NCBI GenBank assembly: GCA_964645125.1
Contig: CAZXZC010000001.1
Span: 1-55,978 of the forward strand
Direction: 5' to 3'
Source of the DNA: an uncultured Candidatus Saccharibacteria bacterium
GTDB lineage: Bacteria; Patescibacteriota; Minisyncoccia; UBA6257; 2-01-FULL-56-20
Length of the DNA: 55,978 bases
Under the pieces are notes generated by a model. It saw nothing but the letters and a program-made list of their open reading frames with translations, did no database searches and had not been told where the DNA came from. The translations under genes were made by a program, and so were the position numbers. Of this stretch, positions 16,447 through 55,830 are shown piece after piece. Positions within the stretch are counted from its first letter, which is position 1; each line of letters opens with the position of its first letter.

Positions 16447-16476
16447 TTGACATTGGTATTTTAATTACTAATAATT
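16447..16476 (+). promoter_or_regulatory. Candidate sigma-70-type promoter with an overlapping near-palindrome that could be the RHH operator
   Basis: TTGACA lies at 16447-16452 and a TAATAA/AATAAT box 16-17 nt downstream. The 16-nt sequence TAATTACTAATAATTA (16463-16478) is 14 of 16 self-complementary. The site is 25-55 nt upstream of the RHH gene ATG at 16502. Confidence 0.4.
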
Positions 16477-16501: not shown

Positions 16502-16714
16502 ATGAGCACACCGAAGTCTTCGTATACTACCGTTTCAATTCCCCTTCCTTTGAACAATAAAATTAAAAAACTTATTAAAAATAGTGGGTTTCGGTCGACG
16601 TCGGCGTTTGTGATATTTGTGCTTCGAGAATTGCTCACCGAACAAGAAGGCGCAGACATCATACTGGGCCATGAGCGCATACGAGAACGATTAAAAACAC
16701 TCGGCTATTTATAA
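16502..16714 (+). CDS. Ribbon-helix-helix (CopG/Arc/MetJ-like) small protein with a C-terminal LKTLGYL tail
   Basis: The 70-aa protein has an RHH-like pattern: beta strand TTVSIPLPL, helix NNKIKKLIKNSGFRS, helix TSAFVIFVLRELL. It ends in ERIRERLKTLGYL. It is the first gene of the plus-strand operon. Confidence 0.6.
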   Translation: MSTPKSSYTTVSIPLPLNNKIKKLIKNSGFRSTSAFVIFVLRELLTEQEGADIILGHERIRERLKTLGYL

Positions 16715-16744: not shown

Positions 16745-17017
16745 ATGGAACTTTCAGCGATTCTCGGGTGGACTGCAACAATTTTGTTTACGCTGTGCTA
16801 CATTCCCCAAATACTTAAAACTCATAAAACAAAAACGGTTGAGGGTTTGAGTTTTTTACTTTTGTTTATTTCGTTCGTGGCGAATATCGTAGCGCTTGTG
16901 TATGCCAGCATTATTCACCAAGTGCCGTTGCAGGTGAAGTACAGCTTCGCGCTCTTGTTTCTTAGCGCCACGATTATTTTGTATCTAAAAATTTGGCACA
17001 GGGAACGGAAAAAATAA
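16745..17017 (+). CDS. SemiSWEET / PQ-loop 3-TM transporter
   Basis: The 90-aa protein has three TM helices and the PQ-loop signature LFTLCYIPQILKTHKTKTVEGLS. Its size and layout are typical of bacterial SemiSWEETs. Confidence 0.8.
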   Translation: MELSAILGWTATILFTLCYIPQILKTHKTKTVEGLSFLLLFISFVANIVALVYASIIHQVPLQVKYSFALLFLSATIILYLKIWHRERKK

Positions 17018-17021
17018 TTTT

Positions 17022-18170
17022 ATGAATACACCTCTCGGCAAAACACTTGTTCAACGTGTAGCAACAGCCAAAGAAAAGGCTCGATTACTTCGACTTGCAC
17101 TCCCCTCGCTTGCCATATCAGATGAGCGTGCCACAGAAGTTCGCAACATCGCCCATGGCGTGTATAGCCCGCTAACTGGGTTTTTGGGGAAAAAAGACGT
17201 GGGTTCTGTTCTTCGCCATTGCACACTTACCACCGGTGTGTTTTGGCCCATACCGATAATTCTCGATATTTCAAAAGAGCAGGCTCTGCAATTTAAAAAA
17301 CAGAATGTTCCACGTCTTTTTTTGACCTCATCGACCGGGCGCAAACTCGCACTTTTAGATGTTTCTGAAATATACATGTTCGATAAAAAGGCGTTTTGTA
17401 TGGGCGTGTTTAAAACTACCGACACAAATCATCCGGGCGTAAAAAAAATATTCGCGCGTGGCGAGTATTTGATAGCGGGAGACATTACACTCTTGCAAGA
17501 TACCAAGGGCGAGTTTGCTCGATACAATCTTTCGCCACAGCAGGTGCGTGGTATTTTTGCCAAGCGGCACTGGAAAACCATTGTGGGATTCCATACTCGC
17601 AACGTTCCCCATCGTGGGCACGAGCATGTGCAGCGCGAAGGCCTGAAGCATGCGGATGGAATATTCGTCAATCCGTTGGTAGGGGTAAAAAAGGCGGGCG
17701 ATTTTCGCAACGAGGTAGTTTTGAAAGCATATGAATATCTTGCCCGCTATGTGCTACCGCGCGGAAAATCCTTGTTAGGCATTTTACCCCATAACCCGTA
17801 CTACGCAGGACCACGAGAAGCGCTGTTAACGGCTGTAATTCGCAAAAATTTTGGCTGCACCCATTTTATTATTGGCCGCGATCATACCGGTGTGGGCGAC
17901 TACTATAAACCCCAAGATTATGAACGGATGCTGGCGCGATACCAGGGACAGATGGGTATTACTGTTCTGCATTTTAAAGAAGCGTTATATTGCCGTGGGT
18001 GCGGCGGTATGATGCTCGAGAATCTGTGCGTGCACGATGAACATGAACGTGTTCGCCCAAGCGGCACTAAGGTTCGTGCCGCACTTGTTGCAAAAAAACA
18101 TCCACCGCACGAAATGATGCGGCCTGAAATAGTACAACTCGTGCTTCGACAAAAAACATTATTCGTATGA
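17022..18170 (+). CDS. sat: Sulfate adenylyltransferase (ATP sulfurylase)
   Basis: The 382-aa protein has the signature motifs GFHTRNVPHRGHEH and HFIIGRDHTGVG, plus a PUA-like N-terminal domain. Confidence 0.93.
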   Translation: MNTPLGKTLVQRVATAKEKARLLRLALPSLAISDERATEVRNIAHGVYSPLTGFLGKKDVGSVLRHCTLTTGVFWPIPIILDISKEQALQFKKQNVPRLFLTSSTGRKLALLDVSEIYMFDKKAFCMGVFKTTDTNHPGVKKIFARGEYLIAGDITLLQDTKGEFARYNLSPQQVRGIFAKRHWKTIVGFHTRNVPHRGHEHVQREGLKHADGIFVNPLVGVKKAGDFRNEVVLKAYEYLARYVLPRGKSLLGILPHNPYYAGPREALLTAVIRKNFGCTHFIIGRDHTGVGDYYKPQDYERMLARYQGQMGITVLHFKEALYCRGCGGMMLENLCVHDEHERVRPSGTKVRAALVAKKHPPHEMMRPEIVQLVLRQKTLFV

Positions 18171-19579
18171 ACAAAAAAACTCCCTCGCTTAAGAAAAAAG
18201 TCTTTGTGCTTGGTATCGACGGGCTCGTGCCCAGACTTGTGTTTGATCAGTATCGCGCGCACCTTCCGACCTTTAGTCGTTTAATGAAAGAAGGTGCGTA
18301 TGCGCGACTGCAGTCGACCGTTCCGCCGTCTTCTATTGTTGCGTGGACTTCAATTGCCTCTGGCAAAGACCCCGCCCAAACCGGCATTCATAGCTATACC
18401 AACCCACCACATAAATCTCGCGGCACTCGACTCACTACTTCGCAGGATGTCAGAGTTCCTTTGTTGTGGGACATTTTAACCACGCATCACAAAAAATCTA
18501 TCGCATTAAATATCCCCCTTACCTATCCGGTGCGTCCCATCAATGGATTCATGGTTAGTGACTTTTTAACTCCTTCTTTTGATACTCACAGTGTATATCC
18601 CCTTTCGTATAAAAAGAAGATCACACAGCTTCTCAAGGGTAAAGAGTACATGTTTGATGTGGCGGGGTTTACGGGATACAAAAAAATGGATTTGCAGGCG
18701 ATTGTCGATAAAACATACGAGATGACCGATATGCACTTTACGGTTGCCAATGATTTATTTCGTACCGCTGATTGGGATTTGTTTTTTATGGTTGCCATTG
18801 GCAGCGATCGTCTGCACCACATGTTCTGGCGCCATATTGACCCAGCCCACTCTCAATTCGTAAAAAATTCAAAGTATAAAAATGTGGTATTGGATTTTTA
18901 TACATATCTCGACGCAAAACTTGCGAGCTTTTTAAAGGTTCTTGATACAAACCCCCATGCAACAGTGCTTATTGTTTCTGATCATGGCATGGATAAAATG
19001 GAGCAGCGCTTTAACTTGAATGACTGGCTTATAAAAAAGGGTCACCTGACACTTACGGCAGAAGCGAAGTTACTTACGACCGCAGGCCCCAAAAGACTCG
19101 AGTATGGCCCAATGATCGACTGGAAAAAAACTGTTGCCGTCGCCAGCGGTGGATACCAAGGTCGCATTTACCTACTTGAGAAAAACAAAGAAAAACGAGC
19201 GAAGCTAAAGCGTTCAATTATGCAGCAGCTTGCTAAAATACCCGGCGCACGTGGTGAGCAACTAGAAAACCATGTGTTTGATACTGCGACACTCTACGCT
19301 CGGGTGGATAGTGCCGCACCGGACATTATTGTCTACTTCGATAATCTGCGCTATGGGGTAAATAACGATGTTGGCAATGTGGGCTTATACTCCACGGCAA
19401 CTACGGTGGGCGTTGATGACGCAGGACACGCCCCGTTAGGAAGTATTATTATTCGATCTTCCGACCTTCTCCAAACAGGAGACTTAGGCACTCTTGATAT
19501 ACTCCAGGTTGCACCAACTATCCTGAAGGCCTTGGATTTGCCGGAATACAAAAAACTGCGTGGCGCCCCCCTTCTCTAA
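18167..19579 (+). CDS. Alkaline-phosphatase-superfamily protein (type I phosphodiesterase / nucleotide pyrophosphatase family)
   Basis: The 470-aa protein has VFVLGIDGLVP, STVPPSSIVAWTSIASG (putative nucleophile region) and VSDHGM. Its start overlaps the sat stop by 4 nt. Confidence 0.75.
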   Translation: MNKKTPSLKKKVFVLGIDGLVPRLVFDQYRAHLPTFSRLMKEGAYARLQSTVPPSSIVAWTSIASGKDPAQTGIHSYTNPPHKSRGTRLTTSQDVRVPLLWDILTTHHKKSIALNIPLTYPVRPINGFMVSDFLTPSFDTHSVYPLSYKKKITQLLKGKEYMFDVAGFTGYKKMDLQAIVDKTYEMTDMHFTVANDLFRTADWDLFFMVAIGSDRLHHMFWRHIDPAHSQFVKNSKYKNVVLDFYTYLDAKLASFLKVLDTNPHATVLIVSDHGMDKMEQRFNLNDWLIKKGHLTLTAEAKLLTTAGPKRLEYGPMIDWKKTVAVASGGYQGRIYLLEKNKEKRAKLKRSIMQQLAKIPGARGEQLENHVFDTATLYARVDSAAPDIIVYFDNLRYGVNNDVGNVGLYSTATTVGVDDAGHAPLGSIIIRSSDLLQTGDLGTLDILQVAPTILKALDLPEYKKLRGAPLL

Positions 19580-19597
19580 ACATTTATTTTTATCTTC

Positions 19598-20665
19598 ATG
19601 AAACATCCTCACAAAAAACTCGCGACCCATATTTTGTGCACTATCGGCCCCACATCCGAATCAAAGACTGTTATTTCTGGACTCGTAAAAGCGGGCGTGC
19701 AGGGGCTGCGCATTAATTTAAGTCATACTCCACCCGAAAAGGCCCTTGCCATTGCACGCACCATTCGCAGTGTTTCAAAAACTGTTCCACTTATTATTGA
19801 TACTCAAGGAAAAGAAACACGCGTTGGTTCACTTGCTGGATCAATTACCATTTCAACAGGAGATACGCTTACTATTACACACTCTCATACTCACCCACTT
19901 CCCGCGCTTCATATTAGTCGATCCGATGTGTTTGACGTGGTGCGTCGAGGTGATCGATTCTCTCTGGATGATAACGCTCTTGAGTTTAAAATTATGAATA
20001 TTGATCGTGAGCATTCTCACCTTACTGTCGTTGCGGTAAAGGGCGGTGTGGTTGCAGCACCAAAAAACATAAAGTTTAAAAAGCCGTTTGAACCAAAATA
20101 TCCGCTCACTGACCGTGATCTTGAGACAATCAAGCTCCTTGCCCCCCTGGGCATTACCGAAGTTTCGCTTTCCTATGTGACCGATGCTGCCGATATTAAG
20201 CACTTGCGGGCGATGGTGTCGAAGAACATTCAGATTTCATCGAAGATTGAAAAAATGGCTGCCATTACCAACTTAGATGAAATTATTCAAGGCAGCGATA
20301 GAGTATTTATTGACCGTAACGATTTAGGTACAGAAATTGGGTATGAAAAAATACCACTCGTGCAAAAATTTATTACTGCCCGTTGCATTGCCGCTGAGAA
20401 GCCAGTGTTTGTGGCAACTCATCTACTAGAGAACATGATTACCAAAGACAAGCCGACCCGCGGTGAGGTAAACGATATTATCAATTTAGTACTTGATGGG
20501 GTACATGGCCTTATTCTTTCTTCTGAAACAGCTGTTGGGAAAGATCCGGTACGAATTGTAAAAACATTACAAACCTTGATCGCGCAAGCAGAATTTATTC
20601 TTCATAAAACCAAAGGTGCGGTGGCAGACACTTTGGCGCGACTCGATACGCTTCACTATCTCTAA
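19598..20665 (+). CDS. pyk: Pyruvate kinase with A and B domains only; the C-terminal domain is absent
   Basis: The 355-aa protein keeps the PK catalytic motifs: ILCTIGP, RINLSH, IIDTQGKETR, SSKIEKMAAITNLDEII, FIDRNDLGTEI, ATHLLENM and PTRGEVNDIINLVLDGVHGLILSSETAVGKDP. It ends about 110-120 aa short of typical PKs. Confidence 0.85.
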   Translation: MKHPHKKLATHILCTIGPTSESKTVISGLVKAGVQGLRINLSHTPPEKALAIARTIRSVSKTVPLIIDTQGKETRVGSLAGSITISTGDTLTITHSHTHPLPALHISRSDVFDVVRRGDRFSLDDNALEFKIMNIDREHSHLTVVAVKGGVVAAPKNIKFKKPFEPKYPLTDRDLETIKLLAPLGITEVSLSYVTDAADIKHLRAMVSKNIQISSKIEKMAAITNLDEIIQGSDRVFIDRNDLGTEIGYEKIPLVQKFITARCIAAEKPVFVATHLLENMITKDKPTRGEVNDIINLVLDGVHGLILSSETAVGKDPVRIVKTLQTLIAQAEFILHKTKGAVADTLARLDTLHYL

Positions 20666-20677
20666 CCTCTTGCACCC

Positions 20678-21208
20678 ATGAAAACACAGGCCGCCTGCAC
20701 CGTTTGGTTTACTGGCTTATCTGGTTCGGGTAAAACCACGCTGGCTCGGCGTTTGAAACGCGCGTTGTCACGCCGAGGACACACTGCAGTCATTTTAGAT
20801 GGTGATGAGATTCGTAAAACCATTTCAAAAGATTTGGGTTTTTCAAAAAAGGATATTGCAGAAAATCATCGGCGCATTTTGGAGCTATGCAAAAAACATG
20901 CCCAGGCTGGCACCATTGTTATTGTGGCAACTATATCCCCTCACCGAGCAGTTCGGGCGCGTGCGCGCGCACAACTACCGCGGTTTGTAGAAGTATATTG
21001 CAACGCATCCCTTGATACGGTTCGGGCGCGCGACGTGAAGGGTCATTATAAAAATGTTGCATCGGGCGCACTGCGACAGTTTATTGGAGTGCATACCCCG
21101 TACGAAGCCCCCAAAGATCCCGAACTTACTCTGGCCACCCACGCAGAACCCCCCACCGTATCACTGAAAAAAATATTAGGATTTCTGGAAACTTGCGACT
21201 ATATTTAA
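20678..21208 (+). CDS. cysC: Adenylylsulfate (APS) kinase
   Basis: The 176-aa protein has the P-loop VWFTGLSGSGKTTLA, followed by ILDGDEIR and the LGFSKKD segment. Confidence 0.93.
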   Translation: MKTQAACTVWFTGLSGSGKTTLARRLKRALSRRGHTAVILDGDEIRKTISKDLGFSKKDIAENHRRILELCKKHAQAGTIVIVATISPHRAVRARARAQLPRFVEVYCNASLDTVRARDVKGHYKNVASGALRQFIGVHTPYEAPKDPELTLATHAEPPTVSLKKILGFLETCDYI

Positions 21209-21229: not shown

Positions 21230-22285
21230 ATGGCAACCATATATCTCCTCACAAACTCTCCAGACCAGCTCCAGGGTGCTTTTTTTAAGAGTACTGATGT
21301 TTCCACCGGCGGAAGATCAAATGTGGTGTTTTGGAATGAATTTAATGAGGCACTGCGTCAGAGCGGACACGCACTTGCAACCCATGATCAGTGGTCAAAA
21401 GAAATTGCTAATCCCGACGATATTTTAATCGTCGTTAACCATCCCGGAGAAACACTTTTATGGAAATTGTACTACCTATTTAAACACTTCAAGAGTCGCG
21501 GCGGCTTCATTCTTGATCGCCAGCGGTTTTTGAACACAAACTATCGTTTTTTTCAGAAGCGAATTTTGCTCCAAGCAGAGCCACCGATGGTGATGCCATA
21601 TGTATATCGCAATCTGTCATCTTTAGATGCCCAACGCGTTTACACAAAGATACTGTTAGTGTGCAAGGGGTTTGGTGCTCAGTATGGATACTTCAATAAC
21701 TTCTCTGATATTGGTAAAGATATTACGAGTAGGTATTTTAATAATCAAACACGTAAATTTCTTACGCTTATTAATGCAAACGTCACTCCTCATTCATTTA
21801 TCAATGAGTTTTACGGTGAACGCCTGAAGGCAATACGCTATTTTAGTACTGTGCCTGGCTTTGATCTCTATGGGTACAAGTGGGATGGTTTTATCAGACA
21901 TCCACTCTATATTCACTACGGCTCATATGTCAAAAAAACGTGGCGGGGCACAACGCCCGATAAAATAAAAACACTGAGTGAGTATACTTTTTGTTTATGT
22001 TATGAAAATTGTGCCTACCCCGGATATTTCAGTGAAAAGATATTCGATTGTTTGGCGGCTGGGTGCATCCCTGTATATTTGGGAGCGCCCGATATTACTG
22101 ATGTAGTACCTGCCTCATGTTTTATTGATTTTAGAAATTTTCCGGATTACCCATCGCTCCACCGACATCTTTCATCTTTGTCGGAACATGACATTAGTCG
22201 CTATCGCGCCGCTATTGCTGCATTTTTGCACAGCCGGAGCGGAAGTGCTCACATGCACGATTTTGTACAAAAACTTATTGCCTGA
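21230..22285 (+). CDS. GT10-like glycosyltransferase (alpha-1,3/4-fucosyltransferase family)
   Basis: The C-terminal region EYTFCLCYENCAYPGYFSEKIFDCLAAGCIPVYLGAPDI..FIDFRNF matches the GT10 motif (F.L.FENS...GYVTEK..DA...G.VPVY.G). Confidence 0.7.
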   Translation: MATIYLLTNSPDQLQGAFFKSTDVSTGGRSNVVFWNEFNEALRQSGHALATHDQWSKEIANPDDILIVVNHPGETLLWKLYYLFKHFKSRGGFILDRQRFLNTNYRFFQKRILLQAEPPMVMPYVYRNLSSLDAQRVYTKILLVCKGFGAQYGYFNNFSDIGKDITSRYFNNQTRKFLTLINANVTPHSFINEFYGERLKAIRYFSTVPGFDLYGYKWDGFIRHPLYIHYGSYVKKTWRGTTPDKIKTLSEYTFCLCYENCAYPGYFSEKIFDCLAAGCIPVYLGAPDITDVVPASCFIDFRNFPDYPSLHRHLSSLSEHDISRYRAAIAAFLHSRSGSAHMHDFVQKLIA

Positions 22286-22362
22286 TAACTACCCCTTGGT
22301 TTTGCAAACCGTCTTCTTTGTTTTTTTCTCAAAACGCTCTATACTGGTTCGGTACTTATTCT

Positions 22363-22980
22363 ATGGCGAAACACTATCCCTCCAGAGCCAAATTAAGTGA
22401 TGATGAGCTCGCACAAACGGCGGCGCTGTTGAAACGCGTCACCCCGATCCCCTACATGGAAAACAAAGTATTTAAGGCGTTTTGGGAGGGACGTTTAATG
22501 CCCATGATGACTCTGGAGTTTTTTATTTTTCAAGAAAATCCATTTACCTCTTCCAAAAAAACATTGCCTCCTATTCTTCTTTCATACCGCACCGATGAGT
22601 ACTACGATGCCTGGCATGTGCCTGGGGGGTATTTGGGAGCAAAAGAAAGTATTGCCGAAGGTGCCCAGCGCATCTTGCAGCGTGAGCTCGGGACTACTCC
22701 AAAAATGATGCAGCCGCTTTTTATGTTGAACCGCCCGCACGGAAGCCGAGAGCACCATGTGTCTGCGTTTATCGGCGTGACCCTAGCAAAAAACCCATCA
22801 ATTAAAAAGGGGTCGTTGGAGTACTTTAGTTTGTCACGACTTCCAAAGAATCTTATTCCCTACTACTACGAAGTTATTCCTTTATTGCGCAAAACATACG
22901 CATTTTCTCGAAGTTTACCGCCACGCACACGCGCATCATTTTTTAATATATTGAAGTTTTGCGAAATTTCAGGAACCTAG
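22363..22980 (+). CDS. Nudix-fold-like protein with a degenerate Nudix box
   Basis: The segment WHVPGGYLGAKESIAEGAQRILQRELG approximates the Nudix box GX5EX7REUXEEXGU only imperfectly. It is a distant paralog of 26171-26773. The start is set at ATG 22363, since the track starts at an upstream TTG. Confidence 0.5.
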   Translation: MAKHYPSRAKLSDDELAQTAALLKRVTPIPYMENKVFKAFWEGRLMPMMTLEFFIFQENPFTSSKKTLPPILLSYRTDEYYDAWHVPGGYLGAKESIAEGAQRILQRELGTTPKMMQPLFMLNRPHGSREHHVSAFIGVTLAKNPSIKKGSLEYFSLSRLPKNLIPYYYEVIPLLRKTYAFSRSLPPRTRASFFNILKFCEISGT

Positions 22981-26016: not shown

Positions 26017-26170
26017 GCTTACCACTGTACCACCGGCACCTTCTAATTTCAAACAAATGAATGCACCATCTTAAATAGAAATATTGACAAAAGTTATAAA
26101 TATAATATAGCATTGTTCCAGTTTGATTATTTACAAGGTATCGAACATTTTTGCAAAAGGAGACTATGGT

Positions 26171-26773
26171 ATGAATGATGCTCTGTTAAAAATATTGAAG
26201 GAAACTCCACTTGAGGAGCTTGGGCCGGTATTTGAAATCCTGGCCCGGCGAGTATACAACCACCGGAAACAGAATAACGGCTATGTGCCTTTGTCCATTT
26301 TCCCGTTTTGCGTGGGGCTTGGCGGGGTTTATCCCTGCGTGGAGATTGTTGTAATTGATTCGGAAAATGGATTGCCAATGGTCAAAAAACGGAATTCCAA
26401 GTCGGAGCATGGTTATCAAAATGAGTTTCAAGTACCTGGGGTTACGGCTCGGATCACTGATGGTCCAATCGACGTTTTAAATCGAGCCTTCAGAGAGCTT
26501 TTTGGCCTGGACTTACAATTCGATTATTCCGATTTTCCCAACCTTGAGATGGTCGGGATCGAAATCCATGATGAACCATACCGGCGTGCCACCTGCTGGA
26601 CACTGGTATACAAGTACTTTCTTCCGTCAGGATTGCGTAAGGTTTTAGTTGGGGAATGGAAATATGTTCATCCTCCGTATGACGACCCTGAGGTTGTCGA
26701 TCACCATCGTGCAACATTGTCATGGGCGTGCACACCAAAAGATGGACGACCGTTTTTTGTTGCATTGAGGTGA
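26171..26773 (+). CDS. Nudix-fold-like protein with a degenerate box; paralog of 22363-22980
   Basis: The 200-aa protein is preceded by a strong SD (aaaggagactatggt then ATG). The segment FQVPGVTARITDGPIDVLNRAFRELFG parallels WHVPGG...RILQRELG of the paralog. Confidence 0.45.
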   Translation: MNDALLKILKETPLEELGPVFEILARRVYNHRKQNNGYVPLSIFPFCVGLGGVYPCVEIVVIDSENGLPMVKKRNSKSEHGYQNEFQVPGVTARITDGPIDVLNRAFRELFGLDLQFDYSDFPNLEMVGIEIHDEPYRRATCWTLVYKYFLPSGLRKVLVGEWKYVHPPYDDPEVVDHHRATLSWACTPKDGRPFFVALR

Positions 26774-26925: not shown

Positions 26926-27624
26926 CTAAATGCTCGGATACGGAACCAGGCCGATTTGTTCACGTTGAAAGCGGATTGTATCGATGACAAGCCGCAGATG
27001 CGCGGCCATAGGCAATCCGATTTCTCTGGCTTTTGGTAAAACCAATCGGTATGGACCCTGCTCTTGCACCCATTGATTGGCGCAGTAGTTCACGTCAAAG
27101 AGGACGCTCCCTGGGTTTGCGTAGGTTGCGGTTGGATTTTTTTCAAAATATACCGGATCCAGCACTGGCAAATGCGACTGATAACTGGCTGATCGCGCAA
27201 AGAGCGTGGCCATAAGATTTGCCAGCTTGTCTCCATCCTGCAAAGCCGTTTTGACGATATCATCGCCCTCCCTGTTGGGGGTGCGGTGGTTGACCACGGC
27301 CAAAATCACTCTTTCTTTTTGATGGGCAGAAAAATCGGTGCCCATTTCTAACCAATCCATCACCAACTGCTTGGGAACGATGGTCGCCCATGCAAGACTT
27401 GCAGCCCCTGCATTGGTGATAACATGATCGGCGCTGTGACAAAAACCAGCGGCACCAGCCAGCAGTGCAGTTTCCGGATCGGGAGCAACGATATGTGCAT
27501 AGGTTGCCACGCACAAATCGTGATCGAATCCGTGTCCTTTATCGAGCACGCCCGTTTGTCGGTGTGCGCTTTTAACCAGCTTGGCAAGTTTTGGGAGTAT
27601 TTCCCACACTTTCTTTCCTTTCAT
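26926..27624 (-). CDS. HD-superfamily-like protein (putative metal-dependent phosphohydrolase)
   Basis: The 232-aa protein is preceded by a strong SD (ggcggaggcttttt then ATG). HD-like landmarks are KGHGFDHDLCVATYA, FCHSADH and LQDGDKLANL. The family call is tentative. Confidence 0.45.
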   Translation of the reverse strand: MKGKKVWEILPKLAKLVKSAHRQTGVLDKGHGFDHDLCVATYAHIVAPDPETALLAGAAGFCHSADHVITNAGAASLAWATIVPKQLVMDWLEMGTDFSAHQKERVILAVVNHRTPNREGDDIVKTALQDGDKLANLMATLFARSASYQSHLPVLDPVYFEKNPTATYANPGSVLFDVNYCANQWVQEQGPYRLVLPKAREIGLPMAAHLRLVIDTIRFQREQIGLVPYPSI

Positions 27625-30318: not shown

Positions 30319-31305
30319 ATGATAGGATTAGCATTACCAATGACAAATCAAGAGATTCGGCAACACATAGGCACTCTTATTGCTCATCGCCCGACGCACC
30401 CAACCGGCTTTTGGAAAGAAAGCCTTGACTCATTTGATTACGTGCTCTCGCTTCCACCCGATGAGTTCGCTCGTACCCTACGGGTTCACACTCACTACCT
30501 CGATGGAGATTCACATATCGATTATTTGTTTCGGCTGCAGTATGAGAACTATACGCTTAACTACGAAACGCTTATTCAAGAGGTGCCGCAGCGCTACCAT
30601 CTGTCAGCTCCAGACATTTGTAAAGAGCCGGGGTATACGGTACGGGGCGCACGGGTAAGTAAGGCGACTATGCGGTTTCAGCACGTGGTGAACGCGTTTT
30701 ATACCGCGGGCGTCTTTAACCATCTCCCCGCCCGCCCTACCGTGCTTGATATTGGGGGAGGATATGGCAGTTTAATTTATTTTCTTTCAACGCTTATTGG
30801 TCGTGGGCGGTATGTCATTGTTGATGTGCCAGAGGTTTTGTATTTCTCGGCAATATATTTACAGACTGCGTACCCAAACTGGAGGCTTTATATCTACGAA
30901 CCACACACTCCTATCCCCGATGATTGCGACTTGGTGCTCTGGCCTGATTACGCACTCGATACACTACACTTGGGCACTATTGATTTGGCAACGAATGTTG
31001 CGTGTTTTCAAGAAATGAATGAGGCGCAGGTTATTTCGTATTTAGATTTTTTGAAACGCAATAACACGCAACTCCTCTACTCTTCAAACCAAGACTGTCA
31101 ACCGTTTAATACCGCGGGCCACAACGTAACAAATTTGCTGAAAAAATATTTTTCTTTAGAGGAAATTTTTTATCACACAAGGACGAATGTTTCAGCGCAC
31201 AAACTTATGGACCTTTCGCTTCGTAAGATTTTCAATCGACTTCAACTTATTGGCACCTTTTCCAAAGACAGCAACCACGAATACCTTTGCAGGCCGCTGC
31301 CATAG
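30319..31305 (+). CDS. SAM-dependent methyltransferase, putative sugar O-methyltransferase type
   Basis: The 328-aa protein has a glycine-rich SAM motif (VLDIGGGYGSLIYFL) followed by IVDVPE and CFQEMN. The functional subtype is inferred from context. Confidence 0.6.
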   Translation: MIGLALPMTNQEIRQHIGTLIAHRPTHPTGFWKESLDSFDYVLSLPPDEFARTLRVHTHYLDGDSHIDYLFRLQYENYTLNYETLIQEVPQRYHLSAPDICKEPGYTVRGARVSKATMRFQHVVNAFYTAGVFNHLPARPTVLDIGGGYGSLIYFLSTLIGRGRYVIVDVPEVLYFSAIYLQTAYPNWRLYIYEPHTPIPDDCDLVLWPDYALDTLHLGTIDLATNVACFQEMNEAQVISYLDFLKRNNTQLLYSSNQDCQPFNTAGHNVTNLLKKYFSLEEIFYHTRTNVSAHKLMDLSLRKIFNRLQLIGTFSKDSNHEYLCRPLP

Positions 31306-32921: not shown

Positions 32922-34295
32922 TTATTTTTTGATAGCCATCTCGGTGGGTCCACAGATGCGAGTATACGGCTCAAGCATTGTTTCTAATTTCTTTGCTATC
33001 TCTGGTTCTTTAGCATAGAGATTATTTTCACAGAGTACATCATCTAATACGCATAGCGTTGTAGCGTCAATCATTTTCACCATTCGATATCCTCCATATA
33101 CAAGACTTGCGCCCAAAAATGTTTGGTTCGATAGATCTGCTTCTGAATCAGGCACCTGCCCGATTATTGCTCGTTCTGTTGCATCAAATATATTACCCCC
33201 CTTAAACACTGTTGGCTTGGTAATACCGGCGAGTTCGAGTACGGTTGGTGCAACATCAATAAGACTTACTGGTCTTTCGATGCGTGCTTGTGGTATGTGT
33301 GCTGGCGCATGGAATAGTAATGGGACATGTTGATTTACATAGTACAGCGTATCACGATGGCCAACGCCTCCGTGATCAAAAAACTCCTCTCCGTGGTCAG
33401 AAAAAATAACCACGATACTTTCATCATTTATAATGCCCTTTTTGGTGAGTGTGGCATAGAGTCTTTCTATATTTTTATCTGTGTAGCGTAATGATGCATC
33501 GTAAATTTCTCGATACAATGATTTGATCATCTTTAAGAGTGGTGACGTTAATCCACCTGCCAGCATTGGAGCTATGTCGCATAACCAATACTTACACTTT
33601 TGCACGAGCGTCCCTGTTTTGCGCCAGAAGAGCCCGTAGGGAGCGTGAGTGTCCATGAAGTGGACCCACAAAAATAATGGCTGCTCGGTCTGGCCTGGCA
33701 CTCTTTTCTCCACTTCTTCATTTATTTCTTCGGCAATTAAAAATGCAGGGCGAAATCGAAATATATCGACTATAATTTTACGGATCGTGAAGATGGTTTT
33801 TTCTACTATACGGAACAAAAAGGCAACAAGCGGTACCTTGCTCCGCAAAGACCGATTTATTGAGCCTATCGTTTTTAATACCTTCGATTGCCATGTATCG
33901 CCTCGTATGCCCTTCATAATTCCGCCTGTTTTGAACGGACTGAGGTATGCATACGTGTCCCACCCCCTGTCATATCCAAAATATGAGGACATGTACCCGG
34001 CCGAATGAACCCCTATTGTCATATATCCAGCATCGTGCAAAACCTCACTTATCATAACTCGGGGACGATCGATATATGCAAACCCCCCATAATCAAATGG
34101 GTGGGTTGAGGTAAGTGTTCCTACAAAGGAGTGCGGAGAACCAGGCCCCGTAGAAAACGCTCGCAAAAAAACCGCGCTTTTCAATGCAATCGCGTCAAGG
34201 AACGGGGTGTAGCTCGGCTTGTAACCACCGTATCCCATTCGATCCCCTCGCCCTGCATCAAAACTTATAAAAATGATGTTTGGCTTTTTTTTCAT
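32922..34295 (-). CDS. Sulfatase-family (alkaline-phosphatase superfamily) hydrolase/transferase without an evident C/S-x-P-x-R formylglycine motif
   Basis: The 457-aa protein has PNIIFISFDAGRGDR (metal-binding Asp), WVHFMDTHAPY, FSDHGEEFFDHG and SLIDVAPTVLELAGI. The position of the expected CxPxR reads GPGSPHSFVGTLTS. Confidence 0.8.
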   Translation of the reverse strand: MKKKPNIIFISFDAGRGDRMGYGGYKPSYTPFLDAIALKSAVFLRAFSTGPGSPHSFVGTLTSTHPFDYGGFAYIDRPRVMISEVLHDAGYMTIGVHSAGYMSSYFGYDRGWDTYAYLSPFKTGGIMKGIRGDTWQSKVLKTIGSINRSLRSKVPLVAFLFRIVEKTIFTIRKIIVDIFRFRPAFLIAEEINEEVEKRVPGQTEQPLFLWVHFMDTHAPYGLFWRKTGTLVQKCKYWLCDIAPMLAGGLTSPLLKMIKSLYREIYDASLRYTDKNIERLYATLTKKGIINDESIVVIFSDHGEEFFDHGGVGHRDTLYYVNQHVPLLFHAPAHIPQARIERPVSLIDVAPTVLELAGITKPTVFKGGNIFDATERAIIGQVPDSEADLSNQTFLGASLVYGGYRMVKMIDATTLCVLDDVLCENNLYAKEPEIAKKLETMLEPYTRICGPTEMAIKK

Positions 34296-50543: not shown

Positions 50544-50894
50544 ATGCATGCGATCGGTAAGATCATCATTATGTGGGCAGCGAATGTCCTGGCTCTTTTG
50601 ATTGCTACGTATTACATTCCTGGTTTTCATGTGCGGTTTACCCCCGAGGATTTGCTGGTGGTCGCAGCAATATTAACGCTTTTGGGCTTAACCATTCGGC
50701 CGCTTCTGACGCTGTTGTTTGGTCCGGTTATTATATTGACTTTGGGGCTGGGCTTGATTATCGTAAACGCTATTGTGTTAAAGGTTTTGGATGTGTTGTC
50801 GCCAGCAGTTACTATTACGGGCATTATGCCGTTGGTGTATAGCGCTATTCTTATTGGAGTTATTAACTTTTTATTCCACGCCACCGAGCGATAA
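50544..50894 (+). CDS. Phage-holin-family-4 (DUF360)-type small membrane protein
   Basis: The 116-aa protein has four TM segments. The pattern WAANVLALLIATYYIPGFHV...RPLLTLLFGPVIILTLGLGLIIVNAIVL is typical of this family. Confidence 0.7.
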   Translation: MHAIGKIIIMWAANVLALLIATYYIPGFHVRFTPEDLLVVAAILTLLGLTIRPLLTLLFGPVIILTLGLGLIIVNAIVLKVLDVLSPAVTITGIMPLVYSAILIGVINFLFHATER

Positions 50895-55476: not shown

Positions 55477-55830
55477 ATGCTTACTTCATATAAAGATCTT
55501 GTGGTTTGGCAGAAGAGTATCGATTTGGTTGTTGAAGTTTATACTCTTACTCGCCAGCTTCCAAAAAGTGAATTGTACGGAATAGTAAGTCAGATGCGGC
55601 GAGCTGCCATTTCTATGCCATCTAATATTGCCGAAGGGTATTCTCGCAAGCATAAACAAGAGTATGCTCAGTTTATTCGTATTGCCCTTGCTTCAGCTGC
55701 TGAACTTGAAACACAAATTATCATTTGTAAGCGGCTTGGCTATATGAATAACAATTTTCTACCATTGGATGATTTGCTTACCCAAACAATGAAAATGCTG
55801 CGTGCGCTAAACAAGGCTTTAAAAACGTAA
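55477..55830 (+). CDS. Four-helix-bundle protein (23S rRNA intervening-sequence protein family)
   Basis: The 117-aa protein reads YKDLVVWQKSIDLVVEVY.LT..LPK.E.YGIVSQMRRAAISMPSNIAEGYSR....EY.QFI.IALASAAELETQ, which is canonical for the family. Confidence 0.9.
   Translation: MLTSYKDLVVWQKSIDLVVEVYTLTRQLPKSELYGIVSQMRRAAISMPSNIAEGYSRKHKQEYAQFIRIALASAAELETQIIICKRLGYMNNNFLPLDDLLTQTMKMLRALNKALKT

Follow-up and report, generated by a model that had tools for sequence, protein, structure and literature searches.

The window analysed here is a stretch of 55,978 nucleotides (contig CAZXZC010000001.1 of assembly GCA_964645125.1) from an uncultured Candidatus Saccharibacteria bacterium, and our subject is a unit of five genes on its forward strand, at positions 16745–21208. 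In order, these encode a PQ-loop (SemiSWEET-like) membrane protein with three transmembrane segments (16745–17017; 90 aa; PF04193), an ATP sulfurylase of the homo-oligomeric type (Sat; 17022–18170; 382 aa, with PUA_2 and ATP-sulfurylase domains), a divergent enzyme of the alkaline phosphatase (AlkP) superfamily that resembles nucleotide pyrophosphatases/phosphodiesterases (NPPs; 18167–19579; 470 aa; PF01663), a short pyruvate kinase (PK) consisting of the A and B domains only and ending in RLDTLHYL (19598–20665; 355 aa; PF00224), and an adenosine 5′-phosphosulfate (APS) kinase (CysC; 20678–21208; 176 aa; TIGR00455, PF01583). A GT10-like glycosyltransferase with a fucosyltransferase-type C-terminal domain follows on the same strand (21230–22285; 351 aa; PF00852, 51.4 bits). 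From the PQ-loop gene to the GT10 gene, the successive spacings are +4, −4, +18, +12, and +21 nt. An earlier note, made from the DNA letters alone, had described these genes as a tight operon for the synthesis of 3′-phosphoadenosine 5′-phosphosulfate (PAPS); its open reading frames (ORFs) and the spacing of −4 to +21 nt proved exactly right. As set out below, the locus represents a widespread and hitherto undescribed form of the PAPS pathway, in which the NPP-like AlkP is the constant extra part.

The transcription unit most likely begins 30 nt 5′ of the PQ-loop gene, with a 70-aa ribbon-helix-helix (RHH)-like ORF (16502–16714, + strand) that ends in RERLKTLGYL, and runs through the GT10 gene and a Nudix hydrolase-like gene to position 22980. 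The latter (22318–22980, + strand; PF00293, 29.9 bits, with a Nudix box) is the last before a convergent DegT gene. We regard the RHH-like ORF as the probable first gene, because relatives keep it 5′ of the module and because the best sigma-70-like site between 16200 and 23200 lies ahead of it (TTGACA-17-AATAAT, 16447–16475, + strand, 11 of 12 matches). That site is a match to the consensus only, in a region where promoter-like sites do not exceed the shuffle expectation.

Sat passes the curated cut-offs of NF003166 (424.8 vs. 387 bits) and TIGR00339 (331.9 vs. 322.95 bits), scores 251 bits against PF01747, and shows the active-site motifs HTRNVPHRGH and GRDHTGVG in its translation. CysC likewise passes TIGR00455 (179.1 vs. 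138.7 bits), scores 169 bits against PF01583, and has the P-loop GLSGSGKTT. The NCBIfam models for bifunctional PAPS synthases match the window genes individually and partially. Judged by scores and motifs, Sat and CysC are thus a bona fide ATP sulfurylase and APS kinase. The SemiSWEET label that the earlier note gave to the first protein stands only in part: the protein does belong to the PQ-loop family (PF04193, 55.7 bits; MtN3_slv, 23.7 bits, exactly at threshold), but its 40.5 bits against NCBIfam SemiSWEET_2 fall below the curated cut-off of 80, so that the label is over-specific. PQ-loop homologues lie within the module at four other loci (L001, L018, L023, and L028).

The AlkP protein scores 115 bits against PF01663 (Phosphodiest) and has no NCBIfam name; the Joint Genome Institute (JGI) labels its family “predicted AlkP superfamily phosphohydrolase/phosphomutase.” Across 42 homologues, D18, D214, H218, D272, H273, and H421 are invariant and position 56 is Ser or Thr within a PP[ST][ST] motif, which together make up a complete bimetal site of the alkaline phosphatase (AP)/NPP type with a Ser/Thr nucleophile. 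An AlphaFold (AF2) model with a predicted local distance difference test (pLDDT) score of 96.4 finds its best Foldseek matches in ENPP1/3, the Xanthomonas NPP (Xac), ENPP6, and PhnA (probability 1.0, template modelling score 0.5–0.67, 10–15% identity), and the fold matches include ENPPs bound to AMP, pApG, and Ap4A. No close sequence relative was found in the PDB, where sequence profiles align only short segments to ENPP, NPP, and PhnA proteins. The window AlkP thus has its fold, bimetal ligands, and Ser/Thr nucleophile in common with ENPP1/3, Xanthomonas NPP, and PhnA, all of them PF01663 members. However, at 10–15% identity it differs from them in being cytoplasmic, in having no signal peptide, and in its genomic context; in addition, its clade reads PP[ST][ST]IxAW at the nucleophile and beyond, where NPP and PhnA have what we take to be T-F/N-P-N. 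Our literature search, which covered Sat/CysC with an alkaline-phosphatase-family gene, AP-superfamily sulfotransferases, DPANN PAPS pathways, and COG3379, found no publication on this AlkP clade.

With the window AlkP protein as the query, we gathered 85 non-redundant loci; a pattern scan of species-representative genomes gave 291 relatives, out of which 80 loci were retrieved. Six-frame ORFs of the loci were labelled by phmmer and jackhmmer with seeds from the window and from neighbouring genes, and a gene was counted as a neighbour if it lay no more than 2.5 kb from the top-scoring (“core”) AlkP of its locus. An iterated jackhmmer profile for the sulfatase fold merged with the AlkP family; those “SULF” labels were discarded and the phmmer labels used. 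The family is dominated by bacteria of the candidate phyla radiation (CPR) and DPANN archaea, and extends to archaea assigned to Asgard lineages, Armatimonadota, Planctomycetota, cyanobacteria, and other phyla. CysC accompanies the core AlkP at 25 of the 85 loci (once as a fusion) and Sat at 19, with both present at 17. An RHH-like gene lies directly upstream of the AlkP module at 33 loci, and NT356, a nucleotidyltransferase-like family described below, occurs at 24, six times fused. Less frequent are a HIT-like gene (16/85), a PHP phosphoesterase (8/85), the PQ-loop gene (4/85), and a DHH gene (3/85).

The order of these genes varies around a common set. A patescibacterial locus (L001) has RHH-PQ-Sat-AlkP-PK-CysC, as does the window, whilst a Ca. 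Liptonbacteria locus (L094) has RHH-Sat-AlkP-PK; a Diapherotrites locus (L002) and an Iainarchaeum locus (L019) have AlkP-PK-Sat-CysC, and three loci assigned to Frey- and Jordarchaeia (L051, L055, and L060) have RHH-Sat-DHH-AlkP-CysC. The core sequence Sat-AlkP-CysC also stands at loci assigned to Armatimonadota, to Anaerolineae, and, among Asgard lineages, to Frey- and Jordarchaeia. The same genes occur together in unrelated phyla, that is, they cluster far more than by chance. In a neighbour-joining tree of the core AlkPs, the members linked to Sat or CysC are scattered over both major branches, and the association is therefore either old or repeatedly selected. The earlier note's dedicated PAPS-making unit within a glycan island is borne out, in that its gene order recurs in relatives and a lack of conservation can no longer be held against it; the observation as a whole is confirmed and extended, and its first interpretation is partly supported.

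Gene fusions join the same partners. We found AlkP fused to PK (P0069, 789 aa), PK fused to CysC (P0141, 522 aa), PK fused to Sat (P0189, in L091, an Omnitrophica contig), and AlkP fused to CysC (L072). Because of these Rosetta-stone fusions, PK and AlkP are very unlikely to be mere passengers of the operon. A further fusion, of PHP to a bona fide APS kinase (L017, 14155–15564), has a PHP half that best matches 3′,5′-nucleoside bisphosphate phosphatase; it joins PAPS synthesis and the removal of 3′-phosphoadenosine 5′-phosphate (PAP) in one polypeptide. Bifunctional PAPS synthases (PAPSS of animals; Sat-CysC and CysN-CysC of bacteria) likewise couple consecutive or helper enzymes of sulfate activation, and heterokonts have fusions of APS kinase, Sat, and pyrophosphatase. 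In contrast to those known enzymes, the partnerships AlkP-PK, PK-CysC, PK-Sat, and AlkP-CysC are not described there, and we found no report of such couplings in the literature.

Several lineages carry the module with other neighbours. In the three Armatimonadota loci (L054, 13728–14951; L069, 12416–13669; L077, 5368–6777), a mannitol-1-phosphate-5-dehydrogenase-like gene each time comes after Sat-AlkP-CysC, which hints at a sulfated polyol or sugar as the product there. In Planctomycetota (L073, 165–5680; L076, 8776–13638; L082, 605–4144), a DUF362 and 4Fe-4S ferredoxin-domain protein precedes AlkP-CysC, and no Sat-type gene was found near the pair at these three loci. The next gene downstream of the Planctomycetota pair is, in L073 and L076, a convergent ORF of about 374 aa, the L076 copy of which is an Aminotran_5 protein; in L073 a gene of the AIR-synthase family (SelD/ThiL-like) comes after it. 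The Woese- and Nanoarchaeota-type loci have the order RHH-AlkP-NT356-NT356-HIT-PHP. At loci of Woese-, Nano-, and Pacearchaeota type (L004, 8001–12950; L011, L013, L014, L016–L018, L020, L023–L025, L029, L030, and others), two paralogous NT356 copies come after the core AlkP or are fused to it, and are followed in turn by a HIT-like protein with CxxC and HxHxK motifs and a PHP phosphoesterase, as a five-gene module. NT356, a conserved family of 356 aa, carries a GxSDIDxxxxG motif together with an OB fold at its C-terminal end, and is without a sequence match in Pfam, NCBIfam, or the PDB. Its AF2 model (pLDDT 91) has a structural match only to the OB fold in the C-terminal part, and therefore does not clarify the role of AlkP. 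The AlkP-NT356-NT356-HIT-PHP module is probably also linked to PAPS or PAP.

The PK of the window matches the barrel domain PF00224 with 218.9 bits. It should, on its sequence, be filed as a PK-like short form without the allosteric, tetramer-forming C domain, because it has no PF02887 (PK_C) match, because its alignment to Geobacillus PK 2E28 (residues 3–340 of 587) ends before the allosteric C domain, and because it does not reach the cut-off of the equivalog TIGR01064 (257.5 vs. 306.4 bits). Aligned to 2E28, it keeps the catalytic and cation-binding motifs RxNxSH, DTxGxExR, KIE, DLG, ATxxLExM, PTRxE, and SxETA. Its closest homologues (at least 45% identity) are all 331–360 aa long, and those whose contigs we inspected all lie directly 3′ of the AlkP gene (the window, L001, L002, L009, L019, and L094). 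A PK stands near the core AlkP at just five of the 85 loci, from CPR bacteria and Diapherotrites-type archaea, each time directly after AlkP. PK is thus a lineage-restricted accessory, a CPR/DPANN-specific add-on, whereas AlkP is the widespread partner. Since PK always comes right after AlkP, even where CysC is not nearby (at the Liptonbacteria locus L094, 10 kb around Sat-AlkP-PK are free of CysC, and at L009 the AlkP-PK pair stands by itself), it is coupled more tightly to AlkP than to CysC. The fusions of PK with AlkP, CysC, and Sat, the intact catalytic site, and the lost allosteric domain together argue that PK truly belongs to the pathway. The earlier note had suggested that PK could regenerate ATP from the ADP released by CysC; its place in the pathway stands, given the fusions and the active site, but it is tied to AlkP, and the ADP of CysC is one possibility only. 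More distant PKs without a C domain, of 321–341 aa and lacking the C-terminal tail discussed below, lie in polysaccharide clusters without Sat or CysC (L092, 6988–8013; L093, 7001–7966, the latter adjoining a CTP_transf_3-aminotransferase fusion). Short PKs may therefore be a broader theme of glycan clusters, with a wider role in glycan biosynthesis.

The five genes lie in a surface-glycan island that spans about 15.6 to 47 kb of the window. Besides the GT10 gene after cysC, the island encodes three GT2 glycosyltransferases, a GT9 and a GT11; its modification genes comprise FkbM methyltransferase, DegT aminotransferase, RmlD-like reductase, C-methyltransferase, FdtA-like isomerase, and epimerases, and its assembly genes a priming sugar transferase, a Wzx-type flippase, and a Wzy_C protein. 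A GDP-mannose dehydratase with an epimerase/reductase (GDP-fucose genes) and SIS and PfkB genes are also present. The window, L001, and L094 have in common a sulfatase-fold protein that lacks formylglycine, Nudix and HD genes, the C-methyltransferase, FkbM, and DegT, and GT10 is common to the window and L094. The Nudix-like and HD-like genes of the window (22318–22980, 26123–26773, and 26926–27624) recur in all three syntenic CPR islands, and the substrates of their products may be nucleotide or nucleotide-sugar by-products. Two further genes, near the other end of the window and unrelated to the finding, are those for a holin-like protein with four transmembrane segments (50544–50894; PF04020) and for a member of the 23S rRNA intervening-sequence protein family (55477–55830; PF05635, 128 bits).

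We scanned the window with Pfam (E ≤ 0.01), using about 55 ORFs, namely all those of at least 100 aa that are not embedded in a longer called ORF. Among these, there were no cysH, cysI, or cysJ genes, and hence no PAPS or APS reductase or sulfite reductase, and no PAP phosphatase of the CysQ type (IMPase, DHH/DHHA1, or PHP); nor is a sulfate permease encoded in the 56-kb window. The earlier note had remarked on the absence of reduction genes and of a permease, and was right on both counts for this window. A plain assimilatory function was rejected, because reduction genes are absent from the window and the operon is surrounded by glycan genes. It forms part of a reading by which the arrangement would be a loose one: an ordinary glycolytic PK and an unrelated AlkP phosphatase brought together in a compact CPR operon, or assimilatory sulfate reduction. 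Compact CPR genomes do mix functions, an iPGM gene is present on the same contig, and the distant short PKs sit in polysaccharide clusters without Sat or CysC. However, the same gene set recurs in varying orders in archaea and bacteria with four kinds of fusion, the closest PK relatives are all short and the inspected ones all directly follow AlkP, and the window combines glycan genes with the absence of cysH, cysI, and cysJ. We consider this reading largely refuted by the fusions, and give it very little credence.

In line with the earlier note, we recognised no sulfotransferase: none of the window ORFs matched Sulfotransfer_1/2/3/4 or Stf0 at E ≤ 0.01, and the ORFs at 26123–26773, 26926–27624, and 30319–31305 matched no sulfotransferase family even at E ≤ 1. 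A 243-aa protein of L004 served as a positive control, and scored 34.9 and 27 bits on sulfotransferase models, above threshold. A hidden sulfotransferase in the window was also sought with relaxed-E Pfam searches, BLASTP, and jackhmmer seeded with two bona fide neighbour sulfotransferases, and rejected, as these yielded nothing. The ORF at 30319–31305 has an S-adenosylmethionine methyltransferase-like VLDIGGGYG motif, and those at 26123–26773 and 26926–27624 are Nudix-like and, through their L001 and L094 homologues, HD-like, respectively. Canonical enzymes do stand beside related modules. A 243-aa Sulfotransfer_3/1 protein adjoins the AlkP-NT356 fusion modules of the related DPANN loci L004, L005, and L025, and a 297-aa Sulfotransfer_1/3 protein lies two genes 5′ of the PK-Sat fusion in L091, with a methyltransferase between them. 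These neighbours argue that the purpose of the pathway is sulfation and that canonical enzymes are sometimes used; a novel sulfotransferase, as the earlier note had proposed, is therefore not required. That of the window organism may be encoded outside the 56-kb window, or may be non-canonical. Haloferax Agl7 (HVO_2046), which is published as being needed for the sulfation of dolichol phosphate (DolP)-hexose, was considered as a precedent for a non-canonical enzyme of glycan sulfation and then set aside.

The second AlkP-superfamily protein of the window, a cytoplasmic sulfatase-fold protein encoded on the reverse strand (32922–34295; PF00884, 118 bits), had been among the earlier candidates for sulfuryl transfer. 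It has STGPGSPHSF where true sulfatases have C/S-x-P-x-R, so it is no true formylglycine sulfatase; twenty homologues similarly have Ser or Thr, and no Arg, at the aligned positions of the formylglycine motif. In L001 (4713–6080) and L094 (6845–8239), its homologue lies next to the operon and points away from it, and soluble members of the family recur near the module at about 20 loci. Some of these sulfatase-fold neighbours carry an LGYL tail or an RHH gene of their own (L041 and L043).

Such a tail is shared by several proteins of the module. The RHH-like protein has no Pfam or NCBIfam match; its best coherent profile match in the PDB is the RHH domain of NikR, at a weak E of about 0.4, and hhalign gives 1.8% probability against CopG. 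An alignment of the RHH-like proteins shows the pattern of a β-strand and two helices. Of 42 RHH-like proteins, 37 end in GY[LIVM], the full tail reading ...[ED]xx[VI][KR]xRL[RK]xLGY[LIV]; across the proteins of the module it is RL[RK]xLGY[LIV](D/E). The same position in the window PK is 20642–20665 (RLDTLHYL), and five of seven short PKs carry the tail by a loose pattern. It was also found on several module-linked CysC proteins, two of them with clearly appended extensions, on four or five of 21 sulfatase-fold neighbours, and on twelve AlkP-labelled ORFs from ten distinct loci, eleven of which are divergent second-copy paralogues and one the AlkP-CysC fusion of L072 (at the CysC end). As background, the tail occurs on two of 861 unlabelled neighbouring genes. 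None was found on core AlkP, Sat, NT356, HIT, or sulfotransferase (ST) proteins or on stand-alone PHP proteins; the PHP-CysC fusion of L017 ends in GFI, on its CysC half. We tentatively suggest that the tail could dock these proteins onto one shared partner, for which the tail-less core AlkP would be the simplest candidate.

Taken together, we favour, at about even odds, an explanation in which the cassette supplies PAPS (or APS) for the decoration of cell-surface glycans, and not for cysteine synthesis, with by-product handling by AlkP included. The locus would be a dedicated, horizontally widespread sulfate-activation cassette. By their curated-threshold family membership, Sat would form APS and pyrophosphate (PPi), and CysC would form PAPS and ADP. 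Sat is strongly inhibited by PPi and sulfotransferases by PAP, and APS kinase becomes trapped in a dead-end E-ADP-APS complex, a block that PK and phosphoenolpyruvate relieve (PEP; PMC9885120). The truncated PK, with PEP, would keep ATP high and ADP low beside these ATP-consuming, product-inhibited enzymes; as an ATP regenerator, PK is well supported by the sequence features and fusions from which we infer it. AlkP, in turn, would carry out a phosphoryl-transfer step on a by-product, either hydrolysing PPi or passing its phosphate to AMP to give ADP, which the adjacent or fused PK could convert to ATP. This assignment of PPi or nucleotide by-products to AlkP is weak, and the weakest step of the scheme. 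Removal of PPi fits the PPi sensitivity of Sat, the laboratory recipe described below, the frequent fusion to a nucleotidyltransferase-like protein, and the chemistry of the site. Formation of ADP from PPi and AMP to feed PK is pure hypothesis; it would explain the invariant pairing of AlkP and PK. The small RHH-like protein would be a likely regulator or adaptor, and the proteins with an RLxxLGYL tail (RHH, PK, some CysC, the sulfatase-like proteins, and AlkP paralogues) would dock on a common partner, probably the core AlkP. The actual sulfotransferase would probably be encoded elsewhere in the genome, or be an AlkP-fold protein.

The laboratory synthesis of PAPS with Sat, CysC, pyrophosphatase, and PK/PEP follows the same logic and shares three enzyme types with the window (PMC9885120). 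The window differs in that its set is natural and operon-encoded, in that the fourth enzyme is the NPP-like AlkP, whose pyrophosphatase activity is putative, and in that PK is tied to AlkP. The PAP by-product offers a second comparison. PAP phosphatases belong to three unrelated folds (CysQ/IMPase, NrnA/DHH, and PHP), and genes of the PHP and DHH types lie inside related modules, which shows that a gene for removing the by-product is a common part of such cassettes. The window, in contrast, has none of the three, and AlkP co-occurs with PHP and DHH proteins rather than replacing them.

AlkP might instead recycle the spent nucleotide, as a 3′-phosphatase of PAP analogous to CysQ, the role foreseen in the earlier note, or as a mutase that turns PAP into ADP for PK. 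Enzymes of the NPP family and of the PhnA type do act on nucleotides, the fold matches include nucleotide-bound ENPPs, and PAP inhibits sulfotransferases (PMC9885120); in addition, the adjacency and fusion of AlkP and PK would fit an ADP-producing step, and the JGI label names a phosphohydrolase/phosphomutase. However, the same operons encode PHP proteins whose best match is 3′,5′-nucleoside bisphosphate phosphatase (NF041577; 165 bits across their whole length, short of the equivalog cut-off), with one such protein fused to APS kinase (L017), and a DHH-family protein co-occurs in Asgard-assigned loci (DHH in L060; PHP in L004 and L017). The conversion of PAP to ADP is, by our own estimate, thermodynamically uphill, and is unprecedented. 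Because genes of the PAP-phosphatase type, PHP (in L017 fused to CysC) and DHH, already co-occur with AlkP, the CysQ-like role is disfavoured, and we hold nucleotide recycling by AlkP to be quite unlikely.

A different role was considered for the AlkP-fold enzyme, or for its sulfatase-fold neighbour without formylglycine, namely that of the sulfotransferase itself. Sulfate from PAPS or APS would pass to the Ser/Thr nucleophile and then to a glycan hydroxyl, with Sat, CysC, PK, and PAP phosphatases recruited through fusions and tails into a sulfation metabolon. Such a role would explain the missing enzyme, the link to CysC, the paralogy, and the hub-like behaviour of AlkP. The two-seed jackhmmer search with spot checks against Pfam found no canonical sulfotransferase in the window or in most Sat-AlkP-CysC loci, although its sensitivity for divergent enzymes is limited and the part of the genome seen is the 56-kb window. 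AlkP is the constant partner and is tied most tightly to the PAPS-forming step, as seen in the AlkP-CysC fusion and in the nearby CysC at 25 of 85 loci; two or three AlkP or sulfatase-fold paralogues occur per glycan locus, as is usual for tailoring transferases; the by-product role is already filled where PHP and DHH genes of the PAP-phosphatase type co-occur; and the core AlkP is without the tail that its neighbours carry. Against these points, the active site is of the classical two-metal NPP/AP kind, which is geared to phosphoryl transfer, and sulfuryl transfer by such sites is weaker by many orders of magnitude. We know of no PAPS-dependent sulfotransferase of the AlkP fold, and canonical Sulfotransfer_1/3 genes do neighbour the module in L004, L005, and L025, as well as the PK-Sat fusion in L091. 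We therefore regard this as improbable, if somewhat less so than nucleotide recycling.

Several observations also weigh against our favoured explanation, a PAPS-supplying cassette in which AlkP handles by-products. At 34 of the 85 AlkP loci, none of Sat, CysC, PK, and NT356 is nearby, and seven loci have CysC and no Sat-type gene within 2.5 kb of AlkP. AlkP is tied more tightly to CysC than to Sat, including by the AlkP-CysC fusion, which a pure PPi role does not predict. Where PK accompanies AlkP without CysC (L094 and L009), the ADP of CysC is not the sole source on which PK could draw. A single glycan locus can have several AlkP paralogues, which look more like a family of transferases than like a housekeeping hydrolase. 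To our knowledge, NPP-type enzymes do not act as dedicated PPi hydrolases, and most cells have a housekeeping pyrophosphatase. The docking role of the tail is putative; many APS kinases may carry a similar C-terminal pattern natively, and part of the CysC tail signal may be intrinsic to these enzymes. The role of the AlkP clade is likewise putative.

A bolder proposal, which we advance as a long shot, would make the AlkP clade a new, phylogenetically broad enzyme family and the hub of a sulfation metabolon. The enzyme would be either an AlkP-fold sulfotransferase dependent on PAPS or APS, or an energy-conserving PPi:AMP phosphotransferase, and would recruit the Sat/CysC-side enzymes, PK, sulfatase-fold proteins without formylglycine, and the RHH-like protein via the RLxxLGYL docking peptide.

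The well-known weak points of PAPS synthesis and use, namely the inhibition of Sat by PPi, the dead-end complex of ADP and APS, and the inhibition of sulfotransferases by PAP, are commonly considered to be dealt with by unlinked housekeeping enzymes. The window and its relatives show that, in many uncultivated lineages, extra enzymes are built firmly into the PAPS pathway, among them a whole AlkP-fold family. Functional context is thereby gained for three unannotated families, the AlkP clade, NT356, and the RHH-like protein, and through the shared C-terminal tail the formation of a complex can be put to a direct test. If AlkP clears by-products or conserves energy, biocatalysis would find in these operons a natural model for regenerating PAPS efficiently; should it be a sulfotransferase, it would form a class of enzymes of its own, new to science, and account for the sulfation of surface glycans in many archaea and CPR bacteria.

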